Part shown: positions 11,684-34,118 of the stretch, in pieces
How the letters are laid out: each line of letters begins with the position of its first letter
Numbering within the stretch: the stretch's first letter is position 1
Position numbers and translations under genes: made by a program
Assembly: GCA_021432655.1 (NCBI GenBank)
Contig: MU271573.1
Coordinates: 1 to 42,933, forward strand
DNA from: Atractiella rhizophila
Lineage: Eukaryota
Reading direction: 5' to 3'
Length of the DNA stretch: 42,933 nt
The notes under the pieces: generated by a model
Databases searched by the model: none
Seen by the model: the letters and a program-made list of their open reading frames with translations, nothing else
Told to the model about the DNA's origin: nothing

Positions 11684-13184
11684 TCAGTCATAACAGTACA
11701 GCGCTTCTAGCGACTTCTGAATATCCGTCTCTATCTCGTTTAAGCCCTTTCCAATGAAAACCAATTTTCCTCCTTCCCCTCCCACTTTCTCTGAGCTGTC
11801 CTCTTCGATCAGCTCTTTGACATCAAAAATCTCTCTAACACCCTGCATGATCCACCTCCGTTTCCTTCCATCCATATTCTTTGAAACTAGGTAGGCTTTC
11901 GATCGCAAAATTTCAATCTGACTCTCGTTGGATTTAGAAGAAGGAACTCTCCCTTCCCAGTGCAGAGAACCCATAAGCGCTTGCCATCCGCTATCAGAGT
12001 CATCTGGTTCTTGCGCCAGTGGTGCAGAAAGGTTTATGGATATCGAACTGATTCCTGGATGTCTCGGTAATGATCCACCGTGATCGTGGTCTTTGTTGCA
12101 TGATTCTGAGCACTCCTCATGCTTGTGGCCCTCATCGTGCAGGTGCGAGGGGGAAGCAAATGACGCATCTTGTAGTTTGAGTGAGGAGGATTCAGAGTAG
12201 AAGAGATTTTGTGAGAGGATGTTGGAGAGAGGGATGACAGAGTGGCGTGTTTCATGGATTGGGGAGGTAGGGTTGATGGATTCAATTATGGAACGAAGTG
12301 TAGGGATGCGATCGGAAGGCACGAGATCGAGTTTGTTGAGGAGAACGATGTCAGAACATGCAATTTGTCTATTGCCCCTCCGTCAGTGAACCTGGCTAGA
12401 TGTAGAGAGATAGGATCGACCGAATAGCCTCGTTGGGCTCTCCATCTCGCCGCTCCTCAGCTAACGACTGTCCTTTTGATAAGCCTCAGGGTATGAAGGG
12501 AATTAGTGGATTGCAGTACCTTTTCGATATTCACGGCGTCCACTAGCACGACTATAGAATCAAGATAGACATCGCTAAGCTGCCCTTCGTCCATCCAAAA
12601 GATCTTAGCCAATGCCGCTGTCCACAATTGAACAGCAACATGTATCAGCATCTCTCTTGCAATATGTAACAAGAAGAGAGACTAACCAGGATCTGCGAGT
12701 CCGGAAGTCTCGAGAAGAATGTAGTCGAACTTGCCCTTTTTCTCCATCAGGTTCTCGATCGCAGCGACACCATTGTCATAGACAGAACAGCAAAGGCAAC
12801 CGTTCTTTCTTCCCCACCATTATGAATCATCAGTTTTGCTGACACTACTCAGAGGAAAAGAAAATGTCGGCACCTGGAGTTCTAACCACTCTTCATATTG
12901 TGACCCGGAGGAAGCAACTGAGATGGATTTCGCTGTTCCTTCCTATGGATTAGTTTGCAATACTATGGATGGGGAAACGGCTCACATTCAATGTCGCCCG
13001 TGGATCCGAACTCATTCATGATCACTGCGATCTTAAGGTTGTGTTGCTCAGTCAATATATAACTGCATTCTCTGGCATTAGCTTGGTTGGATTGTGGACA
13101 AGATACTCGCTTTAGAAGGGTGGATTTCCCTGAGCCTAAATAACCGGTAAGAATGGTGATAGGCACTCGATCCTTTGTCTTCAT
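11684..13184 (-). CDS. ZNG1: COG0523/CobW-family G3E GTPase, zinc metallochaperone (ZNG1/CBWD-like)
   Basis: [18 protein letters not shown] (Walker A), [16 protein letters not shown] (CxCC), [14 protein letters not shown], a His-rich linker [22 protein letters not shown], and a CobW_C-like end (ILRSKA...QGVREIFD...KLVFIGKGL). Confidence 0.88.
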
Positions 13185-19138: not shown

Positions 19139-19680
19139 CTGTATCAAATAGTATTTGAACAGCCACACAAAAGCGCTGATGAAAGGAAAGAAAAAGAAGG
19201 GGGGAAACGTATTTGTCCCATATTGGTATAAGTAGGACAGTTCGTGCCGGTGTGCCGGCAACTCTGGTGCCAAAAGCTGCTGAGTCGCATGGGGATGTAT
19301 TCTTGCCAACCTTCACAACCTCGCTGTGTCGAGGAGGAAAGGCAGACGCGAGCAGTTCTTGGGACAGGCTCGAGGTGGGTGGTCGCTACAGGCAGGTCTG
19401 GCTGCATTAACTCCTCAGTGATGATCAGTAGGATTGCCTGCTGGGCAGATGTAGGCGCATCGTGACAGGGGCGTTATGCGGAGTTACAGGCACGTCCAAT
19501 GATTTCTCGCTCGCACTCACTCAACCTATGAGCGTAATGTGAGCCAAAGTTTAAAGTAGGGAGGGAGTCACCACACAGAAGGAAATGAAATACATTAAAA
19601 AGCTAAGTTCTGAATAACATATGATCCTTGAAGATAAGGCGGCGAAGGAAAACGTTGGATATGTATAAGGTGGTAGCAAG

Positions 19681-22600
19681 TCACGCTGCCTTCACCCGAC
19701 GACTGCTCACAATTTGCTTGAGAGAAACCTTTTCAGGCAGCCATTCGCCCTGTCATAGGTGTTGACACTTAACATAGCGCAATACATAAAGCGAGCAACG
19801 TACGTTATTGATGCACAGGATCTTCATTAGCCTGTGGTATCGCAAGTTTGGAAGCAGCTTCGGGGTGATGAGGAAGTACCTGGTAGAGAATTCATTATGG
19901 GTATATCGTATTAGTGGGAAGAAACTCACTGTCCGGCTTCATCTTTACACGTAACTTCGACAAGCTGGTTGTGAACAGCTCGCTCAGCTCTTTGGTCCAT
20001 TCCCTGATTGATCTCGTCTACGAGAGAGAAAGGACTTTTTGAAAGCTCAGTTAAACTCATGAGGTAAAGGATTGTTGAAAGAGAACGTTCCTAACTCTCG
20101 TAAGTAATGTAAGAGCTTAAGGAGGGACGACAAACTCCTCCGGATTGTCGTTGACCTGTAAGTGGTTGCATTTCATCGCCATCTCGGAATGAGACCATAA
20201 TTCTGATCCCCCATTTGGCATAGTCGGATTCTTCAGCAATTTGCACTTCTCCTTGGCATCCCATGCGAGCGAACGCTTGATCGAACTTCTTGCTTATGCC
20301 TTTGATGAGACTTTGCAAGGCGGGATACCATTGATCCTGTGGCTATACGTAAAGGCAAGGACATACGACCGATCCAAAGCGCACCCTAATTTCTTGCACT
20401 GCTCTACTAATATTGTGAAGTCGAGCGCTAGAAGCCTCCACTTGTCTCCTCAAGTGTATAATCTTTTCATGGCCGCGATCAACTTCTGTATTCCGGTTCA
20501 AAACCACTGACTGACCTTAGCCTTCCTGGTATTGTACTGGTCTCGAATATCCTGCGACACCTCCTCTGTCATATCCAGCTGGGTTCTTTGCGCCTGAATC
20601 AGCTCTTCAATCTCGTCCACTTTCGGAACAGGTTGCCGATCCTCCTCCATATGTGCCTGACGAAACTTGGTCTTCAGCTCCTCTTCAACACCGTCCATCG
20701 CTTGCTGCGCAGTGGCAAATAGCATCTTACATTCGGTAGTTAGGCTCTTGTGCGCAGTTCTACCTACAAAAGGATTAGGGATACTATCTGTGAGAAAGAT
20801 TGTTCAGCGTACTATGTTCATATTCTTGCTCCTTCATAAGCAAGATCTCTCGCTTTTCGTCAATCTGGCCTTGAAGGTGCGCGGCGTTTGCTTCTGCCTG
20901 AAGAAGTTCAAGAGACAAGATCTGAGCTTCAGCAGTAGCATCTACAATGCTGAAGAGAACTCTCTGACAACCCTGTTATTCGTATGATCCCACGGCGATA
21001 CCTTGCTCACTTTGGCTTCAAGCGCCATCTTCCTTCTGTTCTCGCAAATACTAAGGAGTTTCTTCGTGTGTCTCTTCTGCTCATCTTCTTCCTTTGGTCG
21101 ATCTGTGACCTTGACTAGGTGTTTGTTCTTGCCGGCTACGAGCAGTCCATGAATGGTACAGAAGGAAAGGCGGACGACGGAAGACAAGTGACGCACCTAG
21201 TTCATTGTTCGCTTTATTCCAATCATTCCATGCTTGTGTGACTCGCTTTTTCTCCTCGTTGATCTCGTTCTGTGTCTTGATAAGAATCCCATTACACGGG
21301 AAACGATGAAGAAACGAACGATCTCTTCCTTCAAAGGTCCAATTTGACTGTTCAGCTCGTCCTTCTGGGCGGTGGCTGCCTCTAATTTTTTCGTCGCTTC
21401 GTCCTTCAAGTTCACGTGGTGTGCCCTCGTCTGCTCCCACTCTCGTCTCAAGTCTTCGTTGTCTAGCGAGGTGTTTAGCTTCAACGTGTCACCTCACTAT
21501 CAGTAGTGGTTAAGCTGGCGCACCTGTGGTCCTCATCCAACTATCTCTACTGGATTGAATAGTTTTTGCCGTTGTCGTCATGTTGCCAGCGCCATACTTA
21601 GATTTAGAGAATGAGAAAGCCGAATCGTAGGTGAGATAGCTCCTGAAGATACGCGGATTGACAAGGTCCCCATTGACCTCCTGCGAGGGCTTGAAAGCTA
21701 CCGGCTTGTGAAAGTTTATGTTCAGCGTCAAGGCTAAATCAAAGAGGAAGACTGTCTACCAGGTTGTGAAGGTTTTGTGTCAGCTTAAGGTAGACCATGA
21801 CTTCTTCAGGTGCATCGAGAAGGTCAGACACATAGGCGTCGAGCCCATATTGCGACAACTACGAAGACTCGTCAAAAATACCTAAGTAGCGTAGAATCCG
21901 TACCTGTTCCGTAGGGACACGAGAAGAAAGCTCCCCTCGTGTTTGCGGCAACTCTGCCAGGTTCACTCGGAGGCGTTGCTTCTTATTCAGTTCTTCTGTG
22001 AGGAGGATGTAATCATCTCTTTCCGTGCAGACAAAGGTCCTAAGATTCGCATGACTGAAGACGCTTTCTGCTAATGTCACGATGCGAGAGTTGTTTTTGT
22101 ACCGATCCTTGATACTGACGGCGAGTCGGAGAGGTTGAGGAAGGGCTCCCTTGAATCGATCTTTATTCTCACGTATCCAGCAGACGGCTTTCCAAAGGGT
22201 TTGGTCCGCAAGTTGACATTGGTGATCTCTCTGTTGACGTGCATCTTGAAGCCTTGCCAGCCTGCCCAGTGCACTAGTCAGCAAAAAAATAGGAGGGAAG
22301 GATATTACACACTGATTCTCAGCGTGAGAGATGTCCCTTCTCGCCTTTTCCCTACTATCTGACCATTGGGCTTTCTCTTCGTCTAACTGCTTCACCTCCT
22401 GCCTGAGAGCATTCAATTGTCTCTCAAGGGGATCCACTCTACTCTTAAATGTGGTCGTATCTGGTCGATCTGGGACTTTCTCTACAACCTTTTCGAGTGC
22501 TCTAATCTCTTTCTGGAGTTTCCGAATCTGGTTCTGGGCTTCCTCTTCGTTCTTCTTAACTGTCTCCAGGTCCGAGCGCACCTTCCCGAGGTCGTCGTCC

Positions 22601-22893
22601 ACCTTAGAAAGTGCATCTTTCGTCCGACTGTAGCTTGCGACGAGCTTCGTCACATTATCATTCGCTTTCACCACACTCGCCTTCTTCCTCCTTACGCCTT
22701 CTTGCAGTTGCCTACACATGTGAATTGTAAAAGGCGCCAAGTATGGAACAGAAGGGACATACGCGCATTGGACATCAAAAGGCTTGAACCTGTCCCTCAG
22801 GGCGCTGAGTTGACCAGCAAGCTTCTCCTTCTCTTTCTTGAGCTTATCGGCTTCCTCTTTCTGCTGTTGGTACTTGGCGAATGGTAAAAGCAA
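19681..22893 (-). CDS. SMC5: SMC5, 5'-truncated: coiled coil, hinge and C-terminal ATPase half only
   Basis: LLPFAKY at the start of homology, hinge region (WIRENKDRFKG...TFVCTERDDY; YGLDAYVSDLLDAPEEVMVYL; KSKYG), WGIRIMVSFRDG, LTGQRQSGG|ERSLSTILYLMSL, PFSLVDEINQGMDQRAER, QYFLITPKLL. No Walker A-containing N-terminal exons were found upstream. Confidence 0.88.
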
Positions 22894-23189
22894 ATTCGAA
22901 TACCGAATGACGGACGCGGAAGATGGGTCGGAAAACGTTGTCCATGACGTCCACGCTTTTCCGTTCTAACGAAAATGAAGGTCAATACAATATCCCCTTT
23001 TACATTGCGAGGTGCAGCATGCAACGCTCCATCGTAACAAGCGCAACTATGTTGAAAACCAATACCTTAGTCATTCCATAACTCATTCTTGGAGAAGAAA
23101 CCTGATTCCAACGACAGCCGCAGGAAGGCTTTTGGAGGAAGTGGTCACAAGCCCAGAACAACAAACTCAGCTCAAGACAATACTGTCAT

Positions 23190-23227
23190 AGAATGATGAA
23201 GGAAGAATAATGAAGGAAGAATAATGA
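23190..23227. repeat. Short tandem repeat, 14-bp unit (AGAATRATGAAGGA), about 2.7 copies
   Basis: agaatgatgaagga agaataatgaagga agaataatga, read directly. Confidence 0.8.
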
Positions 23228-23672
23228 CTTTGTTAAAATCGCACTTGGTACGCTAAAGCGTTCTTCATTCCATCCTTAACTTCAACTTTGTTGCTAATAT
23301 TCCATGCTTTAATAGCATCACTTTATGGCAATGTCGCTCAGCATTTGCTCGGTATGTAAGATGACCCGCCAAAACATGACAGTTTACAGTGACTGGACCA
23401 TCTGAGTATCCCATCCCACCACATACAAACGAGTGTTCGTTCGCAGTTGATCATGAGGAACGCACCTTTGAAGGTATCGATCACAGTTCAGCTCGTTAAG
23501 TAACTGCCCTCCTGGGTAGCTCTAACAGACGCGCATCGATGTTGCTTTCGTCGTCCTTTCGCGAAATTCGAACACTTCAGCATTGATTCGACCATGGCAT
23601 TCCAGATTTAATGCTTAACCTTGCTTCTTTTCAATGTTACTTTGTTCTGCTTTGCCATTGTGTTGATTCGTA

Positions 23673-26002
23673 GGGCTTACACCATCCCGTCCGGAACAGA
23701 AGCAGTTCTCTTCAACAGCTCCCAATCAACCCCATGCTAACCTCACCTCAACCGCCGTACAGGAACAGATGTTTATGCGTCCAGCGTTAGGTACCCCAAG
23801 GCATATCGAGCGGGCTGAAAAAGAAGTGAGGGGGACATGGGTGTCTATGAACATAGAGGGGTTTATGGGGATGATGGAGAAGAGCAGCCCAAGACCCGAA
23901 GCAGCCCTTTCCGAGCTGCCGAAAACACGCCAGCCAATCGTACTGCCAATTACTGTGCCGCTGCAATACGATGTCGTAGTAAGTGCTGTGCTTTCTGCCG
24001 CTCACGGGAATGGGTTTCACAGATCGAATAGATCGATGCGATGAGCGATTGTTTGGATGGTGGATGGCAGCAGGTCAATACATCTGCTCATATCGACATC
24101 AATATCCCCAACGTCTTCGGCGCGACTAGTGTCAAACCGGATATCCTTCTTTATTCGCCATCCAGACGGGTAGTCGACGGTTGAATGACGGATATGAAGG
24201 AAGCTGAATTGTTCTGGGAATTTAAAAATGGTGTGCACCCCTTTCACGATGCTCCCACCAAAAAGGAAACGCACAAGGGCAAGGCGAATGCCGATGAACC
24301 TGAGATCGAAAACGATGCCTTGCAAGCGGAGATAGGCAGGGACGAAGATGAGAATGCCCCAAGCGGCTTTGAGAATGGAGCCGACAGTGCGGTGGAACTT
24401 CGCGGTCAAATAACGCTTTATAACACTGTCATTCAAATCCTCCAACACAGGACTCGCGTCTTTTCCATCTATATCGAGGGGAAAATAGCGCGCCTCCTTT
24501 GTCATTCTCGTGCGGGCACAGCTGTCACCTCTCCGTTCAATTACAACGAGGAACCCCATCTTCATAAATCTTCGTTTCGATACACTCGCTCTGCCAGAGC
24601 TCAACGAGGACATGACGACACGTACAGAAAACCCAGAAACCGTGTCGAGGAGGTAAATGCAAGGAAAGCACCTTGGACTTGAGGGTGACGATCCGCTATA
24701 CGTGGTTGAGTTCGATTCAACGAGCTACTACATCTCGGAACCTTTCACCGACTTTCACGAATATCCCGTCGGTCGCAACACGAAATGTTTCTGCCTATCG
24801 CCCTGGCCTTGAGAGTCTTGTCCTTTTGAAGGATATATGGAGGAAGATGGAGTACGAAAAGGAAGGAGACGCACTTCGAAAATTAAATCTTGCAAACGAC
24901 CTCAACGTCCCAACTGTTCTTGACGACCGCGATATGGACGGCAGCTTCCAGATGATCGCGGCACCGTATCGCCAAGCGATGCAACATTATATTCAGGTAA
25001 CTGACAAGATTGGACGGCCGCTTTCTTCATTCACGTCTAGCTGGGAAATGGTCAACGCGGTCTGTGATGCCATTCGAGGTATGTTTCTGTCTTGTTGTTA
25101 CTGATTGTCTGACCAGAACAAAGCCCACGAAGCCGCATGGGAGAGGACGACGATTTTATACCGCGATATTTCATCAGGCAATATCCTTATTTATGATCTA
25201 CCATCAACATCCGATGATGAGCCAAGAACCTCCCAAGGACTCTTGATTGACTGGGAAATGGCAAAAGTGGGCTTGTCAGAATCCTTTCCCAGGACTCCAG
25301 AACGCACTGTAAGATCATCCACCGGTTAATTGTGCAAGTCATTCTAAACTGGTGGCTGTTTAGGGCACCCATCAGTTCTTAGCTCTTGAACTCATGGGTC
25401 CAGATCACATCCCGCATGGACCTCGACACGACCTGGAATCGTTCATGTACGTCCTATTTTGGATCACACTACGTCATGCGCGTCATGCTAGCCAGTCGAT
25501 GTCAGACTCCAAAAGAAAAGAGTTGCTCGGAAAATTCGATCGGAAGAGTACGATGGCGGCAAGTCACGCAGCGAAATTGAGTTTTCTGAAGTCCCCCACC
25601 GAAGTTTTACATATTCGTCTGGACATGACGGGGCTGCGCGATGTGCTCGAGTCAGTTTGGCGGCCCTTCCAAGCTTACATGGATACACCGAACGTGAAAA
25701 TGAAGGCGACAGAAGCATCTTGACGCATTCTGATCTGATCCTAAAGCTTACATCCCGCTTGGAGACGAGAAATGGAAACGTACGAAGGATGCTGCAGTCG
25801 AGTACAAGGTGCAGAACGACCGAGAGATGACGCAGATGATGATGAAGATCAAGAAAGAACGGGCAAGTGGTCATGGAATGCAGGTGCGAGCGGTAGTCGA
25901 CGCAGTGGAAGGGGTTTGAGAAGCACGAAGAGTGCAGCGGGGAGTACGAAGAGCTCTGCCAGTCGGACGAGAAGCAGGGGTGGATCGAGTGGACTGGTTT
26001 AA
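23673..26002 (+). pseudogene. Fungal-specific protein kinase (FunK1 / Pkinase_fungal) pseudogene
   Basis: Motifs: VKPDILLY, ELFWEFK, RGQITLYNTVIQILQHRTRVFSIYI, PVGRNTKCF, LLKDIWR, LNVPTVL, IGRPLSSF, ILYRDISSGNILI, GLLIDWEMAK, RT|GTHQFLA, HGPRHDLESFMYVLFW. Disablements: in-frame TGA at 24182-24184 and frameshifts near 24671, 24792 and about 25720. Confidence 0.85.
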
Positions 26003-26841: not shown

Positions 26842-27032
26842 CTATCAATCTACTGTGACATTTAATGGGAAATCGTTGTGCAGAATAAAGAGATTTGATT
26901 TTAGGCAAAGCCTCAAAAAGCTAGATCCTGAGAGTAACTATCAATCTACTGTGACATTTAATGGGAAATCGTTGTGCAGAATAAAGAGATTTGATTTTAG
27001 GCAAAGCCTCAAAAAGCTAGATCCTGAGAGTA
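26842..27032. repeat. Perfect tandem direct duplication, 95-bp unit (period 96)
   Basis: ctatcaatctactgtgacattt...gctagatcctgagagta occurs at 26842-26936 and again at 26938-27032. Confidence 0.95.
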
Positions 27033-32375: not shown

Positions 32376-34118
32376 TCAAAAGGTTTCAAATGTAAAGGAA
32401 TGCCATCCATCTGCTCCTTGCTTCTTTGCCGCCTTCTCGGCATCGCCATCATCCCATTGCCCATAGAATATCTGGAGGTGAAATTGCGATGATTCTTTTG
32501 AATTTAAAGCATCAAGAAAGTTTACAAATCCGTCAAAAGCCACAGAATGACACCATTTTATGCAGAGTTCACTCACTTTGGACAGTTGGACTTGATGAAA
32601 GAAGTTAGATGAGAGAACATTGCTGTGTTCGTGACCGCCATCAATGTCCAGCGAAGTCAGATTTGGGAAGTTAGAAAGCATCAATGGTTCCTCCAAACGA
32701 AAGGTCCTGAATTGTAGTCTGTCAAACCAAGCGACAGGGAAAAACCTCAGAGTAAGCTGCTCTAGACGTGGCCAATATTCTTGATATCGGAATGTGAAGG
32801 GAAAGCAGCTGATGAGATGCAAACCCGTTAGGTTTGGTAATCGGTCCAAGGTCTCACAAAAAATGGGGGCTTGAAACACATCGATGAGCGTTATGCTTGC
32901 CAACCTCAAGAATTCTGCCCAATCAAACTTCAAAATGTTCGTCAACTGAAGTTGGAACGGTGGATTGAGTGTACGGGGTCCTTCCTCTCCTCGTTCTGTC
33001 ACCTGAAAATGTTCTAGAGTTTGCCGAGATCGAGTACGTTGCAGAAATTCAAAAGCAGATCGCATAGTCCATAGGTGAAGCTTCAGAAATCTGATGTGGT
33101 CAAAACTGACTAAGGACAACATACTTTTTACTTCCTCCTTCAAAGGCGGAGCTAAAAGTCTGATATATAAAATCTTGGGCTGAAAAGTCGTGACTTTTTG
33201 TAACAGGTGCAACAAACTCAGGCTTTGAGCTTGATCCTTGAAACTGTAGTCGAGACGAAACCATCTCCACCGGATGATTGCAGATTGTTCCAAACTTTCC
33301 AATTTTTGAAACGCGTGAACAGGCTCCGCTTCAAAAGTCTCAAATTGTTTACGCCACCTTTTGCAAACCCATTCACAGCAATTGTTGACAACTTGAAAAT
33401 GGTAAAATGGATCTTGAAGCGCCTGCCGACATGCACCGACAACCTCTGCCAGAATTAAGTCAAGTGTTTCCAATGGTAAATCTGAGATAGGGGAACTGTA
33501 GATTGGTAGAGGTATCGCAAGCCAAAAGATGAGTGAACATTTCGGTGCCGTTTTCCACATATTGGACGGTAAAGCAAGATCCTCAGGGTGTATTGTCATA
33601 GTGACGAGTCCCGATTCAGTATTTATAACAGTGGTCAAGCTCATGAATGATGTGTGATAGTCATCAGAGCTATCGGTAGTAACAACCTTCAAAATCTGAC
33701 GATGTTGCGCAGAGAAATAAATATGGAGCGTTTTGTGAGCAGGGTCGTCGGAAATAACGGGTGCAGGAAGAGATAGAACCTGAGCACCTTCGTCGTAAGT
33801 GAGTTCAATGTGAATGGGGTTTTCGCTTTCATCGGACTCGTTGACGTCATCTTCAATCGCCAACCTGATAAAATGCAAGCAAACTTCCTCGACCGCCGTT
33901 GCCTCGATAAATGAGCTAGTCCAGCTCAAATAGACAGCGTAATGCGGGTCTTCATCACAGGCGGTTTCCTCACGAGCAAGGTGGTAAAAGTGAATAATTG
34001 GTTCTTGTTTCGTCACTGCTGAAATGGTCAGATAATGGTCCATGGAAAGGGCAAGGTTGCCACCTAGTGCAGCAATTTCCTTATCTCCTCTGCACTTACT
34101 TCCGTCTCTGCTTTTCAT
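32376..34118 (-). CDS. Intronless F-box-like / LRR-like protein (580-aa ORF; true start possibly M at 34043)
   Basis: Internal ISDLPLETLDLILAEV...EWVCKRWR resembles an F-box. It is followed by LxxLxL segments (LPNLTGLHL, WPRLEQLTL, FPNLTSLDI). Confidence 0.55.
   Translation of the reverse strand: MKSRDGSKCRGDKEIAALGGNLALSMDHYLTISAVTKQEPIIHFYHLAREETACDEDPHYAVYLSWTSSFIEATAVEEVCLHFIRLAIEDDVNESDESENPIHIELTYDEGAQVLSLPAPVISDDPAHKTLHIYFSAQHRQILKVVTTDSSDDYHTSFMSLTTVINTESGLVTMTIHPEDLALPSNMWKTAPKCSLIFWLAIPLPIYSSPISDLPLETLDLILAEVVGACRQALQDPFYHFQVVNNCCEWVCKRWRKQFETFEAEPVHAFQKLESLEQSAIIRWRWFRLDYSFKDQAQSLSLLHLLQKVTTFQPKILYIRLLAPPLKEEVKSMLSLVSFDHIRFLKLHLWTMRSAFEFLQRTRSRQTLEHFQVTERGEEGPRTLNPPFQLQLTNILKFDWAEFLRLASITLIDVFQAPIFCETLDRLPNLTGLHLISCFPFTFRYQEYWPRLEQLTLRFFPVAWFDRLQFRTFRLEEPLMLSNFPNLTSLDIDGGHEHSNVLSSNFFHQVQLSKVSELCIKWCHSVAFDGFVNFLDALNSKESSQFHLQIFYGQWDDGDAEKAAKKQGADGWHSFTFETF

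Follow-up and report, generated by a model that had tools for sequence, protein, structure and literature searches.

A head-less Smc5 gene in an Atractiella rhizophila contig breaks inside an exon, probably at an assembly join

A 42,933-nt stretch of DNA from Atractiella rhizophila (contig MU271573.1, hereafter the window) carries a gene for Smc5 that lacks the first ∼270–280 residues of the protein, comprising the tail, the Walker-A head, and the start of the arm. Is this gene a natural head-less or split Smc5, a broken copy, or the product of a faulty contig?

From its best collinear match, the gene is judged to be Smc5, not Smc6, Smc1–4, or bacterial Smc. A 368-codon open frame at the locus matched one deposited protein, P0001 (hypothetical protein BT69DRAFT_1339185, 830 aa). 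A search with P0001 against the protein collection gave 454 matches at E <= 0.001 (best E 6.6e-127), and the best 120 of the 454 were almost all Smc5 proteins of 1,012–1,344 aa, the top named matches being Smc5; most of the homologues listed were 29–36% identical over 87–99% of the 830 residues. Residues 11–815 of P0001 aligned with residues 278–1075 of solved Smc5 (7qcd_A and others) or 280–1080 (9lwi_I), with E values of 6.7e-68 to 2.1e-50 for the solved chains. The Smc5 pattern is not a chance likeness, because the E values reach 6.7e-68 for solved structures and 6.6e-127 for homologues. Matches to Smc6 (E 1.4e-07) and to Smc3 and bacterial Smc (E at least 3e-06) were confined to the C-terminal head. 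Residues 165–432 of P0001 also matched a chain that holds an isolated fragment of Smc5 (5mg8_A, 347 aa; E 1.2e-10), which we take to be the Smc5 hinge, and alignment with homologues likewise supports a hinge between two long arms. The Pfam SMC_N score of P0001 was 27.8 bits, under the 40-bit cut-off, because half of the domain is missing.

The window retains the rest of the N-terminal arm, the hinge, the C-terminal arm, and the C-terminal half of the head, corresponding to Smc5 residues ∼278 to the end (Table 1). The gene closes with a TGA codon at 19683–19681 of the minus strand. Of the head motifs, the signature occupies 20147–20136 plus 20090–20088, with an intron between, and Walker B occupies 20021–19995.

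We compared contigs of four public runs with positions 19400–24400 of the window. Contigs of run X3 contained, among the joints listed, 14 with CT..AC ends that skip 45–61 nt each, and X3 therefore behaves as spliced RNA. Thirteen of these joints fall within the coding part of Smc5, the fourteenth is found shortly beyond the stop codon (19524–19574), and each becomes a GT..AG intron on the minus strand after a shift of 0–3 nt. Contigs of run X1 keep the introns and are DNA-like, that is, unspliced. Runs X4 (a metatranscriptome) and X7 (organism C) yielded ∼230–250 nt of one exon only (22010–22259), and these pieces carry no information on the break described below or on habitat. After removal of the 13 RNA-supported introns and one inferred intron, 838 codons are open from 22908 to the stop. 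From QKEEADK onward, the spliced product is identical to P0001, apart from the inferred intron, for which another site was chosen. The X3 joints and the open frame therefore indicate that the retained part of Smc5 is expressed and correctly spliced. These results bear out the preliminary description of this DNA, which had recognized the hinge, the signature QSGGE, and Walker B VDEINQGMD and had noticed no disablement from LLPFAKY to the stop.

Table 1. Features of the Smc5 locus and its surroundings (positions in the window; X1 and X3 are public runs)
Feature	Position	Strand	Evidence
Smc5 orthologue, 3' part	19681..22905	-	homologue matches, solved structures, open frame, X3 spliced and X1 unspliced contigs
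C-terminal head motifs QSGG/E and VDEINQGMD	19995..20147	-	sequence, translation
13 RNA-supported GT..AG introns, 45–61 nt	within 19750..22762	-	X3 joints
Smc5 introns 1–4 by coordinate	19750-19803, 19880-19929, 20091-20135, 20337-20384	-	X3
Smc5 introns 5–8 by coordinate	20463-20515, 20764-20812, 20964-21010, 21136-21196	-	X3
Smc5 introns 9–11 by coordinate	21463-21523, 21705-21759, 21859-21903	-	X3
Smc5 introns 12–13 by coordinate	22262-22312, 22712-22762	-	X3
One further Smc5 intron	between 21197 and 21462	-	inferred only
Break point	22905..22906	.	fit lost here by X1 and X3 contigs coming from the left and by one low-depth X3 contig coming from the right
20 in-frame non-Smc5 codons NGKAWTSWTTFSDPSSASVI	22906..22965	-	alignment, arm identity count
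Hypothetical 5' exon of the preliminary description, with 100-nt intron	22966..23086	-	sequence signals
Start of the deposited 830-aa model	22864..22945	-	translation, alignment, X3 contig
XPB/RAD25 helicase	13.4-16.7 kb	+	frame scan
MFS transporter	17.6-18.1 kb	-	frame scan
FunK1 fungal-type protein kinase (PF17667)	23769..25830 (frames 24.6-25.7 kb), 3' limit approximate	+	Pfam, X3 intron
MCM-binding protein	27.5-28.5 kb	-	frame scan
DEAD-box helicase	29.9-31.3 kb	-	frame scan
GT17 glycosyltransferase	35.3-37.0 kb	-	frame scan

Likeness to Smc5 starts at LLLPFAKY/LLLPFAKYQQQKEEAD (∼22893). In an alignment with 14 full-length homologues, LLLPFAKY was placed against motifs of the type IPFAQY, IPFARY, and LPFKEY, which follow ∼270–430 residues of each homologue. 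When 11 full-length Smc5 proteins were compared with the window by tblastn, the hinge and the C-terminal head were placed at 19,684–22,899, and nothing better than E = 0.94 was obtained before query residue 319. Weak matches at 33164–33361 (three queries, E 0.94–8.1) were rejected as chance, their translation having neither a P-loop nor SMC features. A scan of the window in six frames for G....GK[ST] returned five matches, only one of them in an open frame, and this one belongs to a CobW-type GTPase gene at 13145. The N-terminal half of the head with its Walker A motif (GPNGxGKS) was thus found neither in the same gene nor in the whole window, as had been described, and the window contains no N.

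The place at which Smc5 stops could be fixed to a single base. An X1 contig (record 2, 4,052 nt) fits the window from 20373 to 22905 with six other letters and then continues with 1,519 nt of sequence unlike the window. Read on the gene strand, the first 30 letters of this continuation end in TTGAC...CAG, followed by TTA CGG; this intron-like sequence would supply a branch-like site and an acceptor, as expected where an intron ends. The missing ∼280–330 codons with their introns would take up roughly 1.5 kb. A spliced X3 contig fits without a gap to the same base, 22905, beyond which at least 255 nt are unlike the window. The first 30 nt of this continuation, read in the Smc5 frame, encode EEREKLEKEL, directly before the window's RYSNLLLPFAKY. 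We compared these residues with the arms of 36 of 119 homologues, namely those in which a motif search found a PFAKY-like anchor. EEREKLEKEL showed a mean of 4.2 and a maximum of 6 identities of 10, compared with a mean of 0.6 and a maximum of 1 for the window's own ten codons (FSDPSSASVI). Over the 10 residues compared, the X3 RNA past 22905 thus fits the Smc5 arm of the homologues. The exon starts with TTA CGG at 22908 in X1 and X3, where the window has ATT CGG, and the agreement of both runs on TTA places the break within the exon, 3 nt from its start. Since the acceptor used by the X3 mRNA is absent from the window, the window cannot have produced this mRNA.

From the right, a low-depth X3 contig fits the window from 22905 onward and has 70 unlike letters before that point. 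The loose end of an X1 contig coming from the same side is at 22948; judged by eye, its loose letters resemble a diverged copy of window positions 22918–22947 and may belong to a paralogue of the sequence that precedes FunK1. Five loose-end 30-mers were sought in the window with up to three mismatches allowed, and none occurred. None of the X1 or X3 contigs listed bridges the window's join at 22905/22906, where the two sides overlap by at most 1 nt and have no shared repeat; beyond those listed, a minor contig that spans 22905–22948 may exist. X3 cover at 22907–23574 is little or none, and this absence of cover is not evidence. There is no tRNA at the break, a known-RNA search gave only sub-threshold chance matches, and no step in composition marks it apart from an intergenic stretch that is richer in AT.

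At three positions (19665, 21203, and 22675), X1 and X3 carry the same substitution relative to the window, and X1 has more. The window and the X1 contig are ∼0.26% different, introns included (9 sites in 19400–22905), and the X1 and X3 isolates are ∼99.7% identical to the window. Because X1 and X3 both continue past 22905, there is an intact, expressed Smc5 in near-identical isolates, the continuation being Smc5-like over the 10 residues read. On the basis of the same 10 residues of X3 RNA, these data suggest that Atractiella rhizophila itself is not without the Smc5 head.

We also looked for the missing piece in other collections. Among the matches listed, the protein collection contained no second A. 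rhizophila Smc5 of 456–1453 aa or 645–2000 aa, and a 50-aa exon query against longer proteins returned P0001 only (66 candidates). A 232-aa N-terminal piece of P0012, searched against 1.84 billion representatives, gave 3,018 matches at E <= 0.001. EEREKLEKEL (up to two substitutions) and RYSNLLLPFAKY (up to three) were absent from 264 proteins, including the best 150 of the 3,018; the piece could rank below these 150 or sit inside another cluster. Metagenome contigs gave 0 matches to a 27-mer of the upstream exon and likewise 0 to 33 nt taken from the window exon.

What stands upstream of the break in the window is not Smc5. The codons NGKAWTSWTTFSDPSSASVI are open by chance and are closed upstream by a stop. 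The preliminary description had pointed to this in-frame non-SMC stretch, to an acceptor near 22966, and to a donor after ATGAGTTATGGAATGACTAAG, and had proposed from them a foreign 5' exon spliced to 22965. All of these signals are in the sequence: the hypothetical exon would run from an ATG at 23086 to an AAG at 23066 (ATGAGTTATGGAATGACTAAG, 23086–23066), a donor follows directly, and an intron of 23065–22966 would end in the acceptor ...ttcgttag at 22966. The proposed splice is not supported, however, since no X3 joint listed connects 23086–23066 with 22965, and in the X3 RNA contig that extends to 22905 the upstream sequence is that of Smc5 and not the hypothetical exon. The deposited 830-aa model is built in another way, with an ATG at 22945–22943, an exon encoding MDNVFRPIFR in another frame, and then a 52-nt intron (22915–22864) that removes the conserved LLLPFAKYQ. 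No joint for this intron is among the X3 joints listed. Because X3 fits without a gap to 22905, inside the supposed intron, the deposited model looks like an annotation work-around.

The surroundings of the gene were examined in a gene scan of the window, in which 44 of the 64 frames of at least 110 codons were profile-searched. The genes flanking Smc5 on both sides are ordinary single-copy genes. The FunK1 gene is divergent from Smc5; two of its exon-sized frames scored 26.3 and 35.3 bits against PF17667 (cut-off 24.1), which places it in this family, and it has an RNA-supported intron at 23979–24031 (GT..AG joint 23978/24032). X1 contains several diverged copies of FunK1, with at least two contigs that have many differences at 23742–24400. 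The summed X1 depth was 755 in 22907–23073 and 470–790 in 23742–24400, and X1 contigs of about equal depth occur in pairs on the right-hand side (164 and 153 at 23025; 187 of 322 at 23777). A mobile element inserted in Smc5 was considered and rejected: the remaining 20 kb contain no N-terminal exon and no terminal repeats, and they consist of ordinary genes (MCM-binding protein, DEAD helicase, and GT17).

We consider a chimeric join made during assembly the most likely cause of the head-less Smc5, with a probability somewhat above one half. The organism would then have an ordinary, intact, expressed Smc5 gene, of which the window would keep only the 3' ∼5/7, the contig changing partner at 22905/22906. 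The join would fall 3 nt inside the exon, just past the exon's acceptor site; true Smc5 would lie left of 22905, and the DNA on the right would be intergenic, from upstream of the multi-copy FunK1, a region that does not adjoin Smc5 in the public data. The annotation pipeline would have rescued the open frame by means of an out-of-frame ATG and the unsupported 52-nt intron, giving the 830-aa protein. Several points speak for an artefact. Part of the sequence right of the break is multi-copy in X1, and assembly errors arise in such settings; contigs approaching from either side leave the window at one base, the X1 contig passes through 22905 without ending, and Smc5 is essential in yeasts. Against it stand the differences between the window and both runs, such that the window may be another haplotype or strain with a real break; both runs may also come from material other than that assembled. 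A misjoin driven by repeats would, moreover, not usually look like this, with an overlap of at most 1 nt and no shared repeat, although such a join could stem from a chimeric read or clone. We infer that the join arose during assembly, as opposed to within the cell; the missing head, the exact break, and the continuation in mRNA and DNA were observed directly. The main competitor, which we hold to be possible and distinctly less probable, is a real break private to one haplotype (a dikaryon nucleus or diploid copy) or strain, caused by a translocation or inversion with one break 3 nt inside the Smc5 exon. Intact copies in the second allele or in other strains would then supply the mRNA, and the window copy would be a promoter-less null or truncated allele. 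The substitutions shared by X1 and X3 could mark a distinct haplotype, the equal-depth X1 pairs are as in a heterozygous sample, and a join with 0–1 nt overlap fits end-joining. X3 moreover has the non-window letter at all three differing exonic or UTR sites, as if the intact allele alone were expressed, but this would occur by chance in 1 of 8 cases, and different strains explain the differences equally well. The X1 contig, furthermore, runs through 22905 into its continuation, where a contig would normally stop if it met a branch of half depth, the listed X1 and X3 contigs do not cross the window's join, and the deposited proteome has no intact second model among the matches listed.

The window could also contain a recent, truncated duplicate of the Smc5 3' part beside FunK1, the same haploid genome having an intact Smc5 at another place. 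We think this improbable. The difference of ∼0.26% from the X1 contig could be paralogue divergence, and FunK1 regions are multi-copy, but X1 gives a single contig over 20373–22905 that does not end at the break, one A. rhizophila protein only matches the 3' part among the matches listed, and neither the frame nor any of the 13 introns listed is damaged, so that there is no sign of decay. A Smc5 that is truly head-less or naturally split, with its N-terminal head and the start of its arm encoded at a distant locus, is very improbable. In the head-less form, the 830-aa protein would work without an ATPase head; the split form, in which the break at 22905/22906 would be real and two separately made halves would assemble through the antiparallel arm, is hardly to be expected either. 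It is true that the retained part is intact, spliced, and expressed, that a start can be built in silico, and, for the split form, that X1 and X3 may come from isolates other than the assembled one. However, an SMC ATPase head needs both termini, the X3 RNA is one continuous molecule across the break, and the window has no copy of the acceptor that this RNA used. In addition, the first intron of the deposited model would remove a conserved motif, the X3 contig reaching 22905 contradicts this intron, and neither of the two proposed 5' exons has a splice joint listed.

Taken together with the chimeric join as the preferred explanation, the head-less state most likely belongs to this contig's join only, and the locus is most likely not a new kind of gene. 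Of the readings offered in the preliminary description, mis-assembly and a broken allele or strain gained from the X1 and X3 contigs that leave the window at 22905, and a natural split or head-less Smc5 lost. The description had also anticipated that reads might contradict the join, and the contigs of the public runs X1 and X3 do so in kind.

The protein BT69DRAFT_1339185 (830 aa) should consequently not be read as a natural head-less Smc5. The contig is suspect at 22905/22906, and the main value of this result is a correction. If the break were real in one haplotype, a root endophyte would be carrying a recessive loss-of-function allele of a gene essential for chromosome maintenance. According to the available text of a phylogenomic study (PMC13347111), A. 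rhizophila is the only representative of its class there, and its genome is termed unpublished data; with a sole representative, errors in the gene set would pass straight into comparative work. The available text of the literature searched on this genome gave neither the assembly method nor the ploidy.

Canonical fungal Smc5 (7qcd_A, 7ylm_A, and 9lwi_I; basidiomycete P0002–P0120) is collinear with the window gene from residue ∼278 to the end, and both have PFAKY in the arm, a hinge, and the head motifs QSGGE (signature) and DEINQGMD (Walker B). Unlike the canonical protein with its N-terminal Walker-A head, the window gene is without the ∼270–330 residues that bear Walker A. Other Smc5 models are N-terminally truncated as well (P0039, 819 aa; P0067, 808 aa; P0091, 815 aa; P0098, 845 aa; and P0118, 780 aa). 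Proteins of 780–845 aa, P0001 included, make up 6 of the 120 best P0001 matches and begin inside the N-terminal arm, at positions equivalent to residues 242–323 of P0014. The search with the N-terminal piece also gave many short fragments among the best 150 of the 3,018 matches, and these two results indicate that broken Smc5 models are common in draft annotations. The start points of the other truncated models differ from that of P0001, for which the cause could be placed at one base. A chimeric contig or the break point of a structural variant likewise has two unrelated neighbourhoods abutting with an overlap of 0–1 nt, and there, too, contigs from both sides leave at one base.

To compare the window with public sequence data, the contigs of X1, an unspliced, DNA-like run, and X3, a spliced, RNA-like run, were aligned with positions 19400-24400. 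Both runs differed from the window by common substitutions at 19665 (A>G), 21203 (C>G) and 22675 (A>G), and a further six differences, spread over 20112-22731 and intronic in four cases, were seen in X1 alone. Because of these common substitutions and X1-only sites, the window either represents a haplotype or strain different from X1 and X3 alike or contains base errors.

Right of the break in the Smc5 gene (22905/22906), several X1 contigs, carrying many differences and small indels, covered the FunK1 kinase gene across 23742-24400, and the same was found for the short stretch at 22907-23073; the summed X1 depth across these two intervals was 470-790. These differing contigs point to a multi-copy family or to strongly diverged alleles. 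In X3, we observed an additional loose end at 22811, within the minus-strand Smc5 exon LLLPFAKY...QCA, with 89 unlike letters behind it. This end does not coincide with a splice site, and no copy of its letters was found elsewhere within the window; it may stem from a chimera in the graph, from a second allele or from a different transcript.

A 5,823-nt X3 contig ran from the 3' exons of Smc5 leftward beyond 19400 toward the MFS transporter gene (region 19400-19748), and a 51-nt intron downstream of the Smc5 stop (19524-19574) was spliced in it. This intron belongs to the 3'UTR of Smc5 or to the 5'UTR of the MFS gene, unless the transcripts overlap.

Two further features of the window are listed in the table. 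A Pfam search with the 591-codon frame gave no match at E <= 0.001, and Smc5 N-termini used as tblastn queries gave weak chance matches inside it.

Additional features of the contig
Feature	Coordinates	Strand	Location
Perfect tandem duplication, 95-nt unit, 1-nt spacer	26842-27032		flanked by the FunK1 and MCM-binding-protein genes
Open frame, 591 codons	32379-34151	-	

Among the best 120 of 454 protein matches to the deposited 830-aa Smc5 model, we found five other fungal Smc5 entries of 780-845 aa (P0039, P0067, P0091, P0098 and P0118). These entries, too, start inside the N-terminal arm, and they are probably broken gene models as well.
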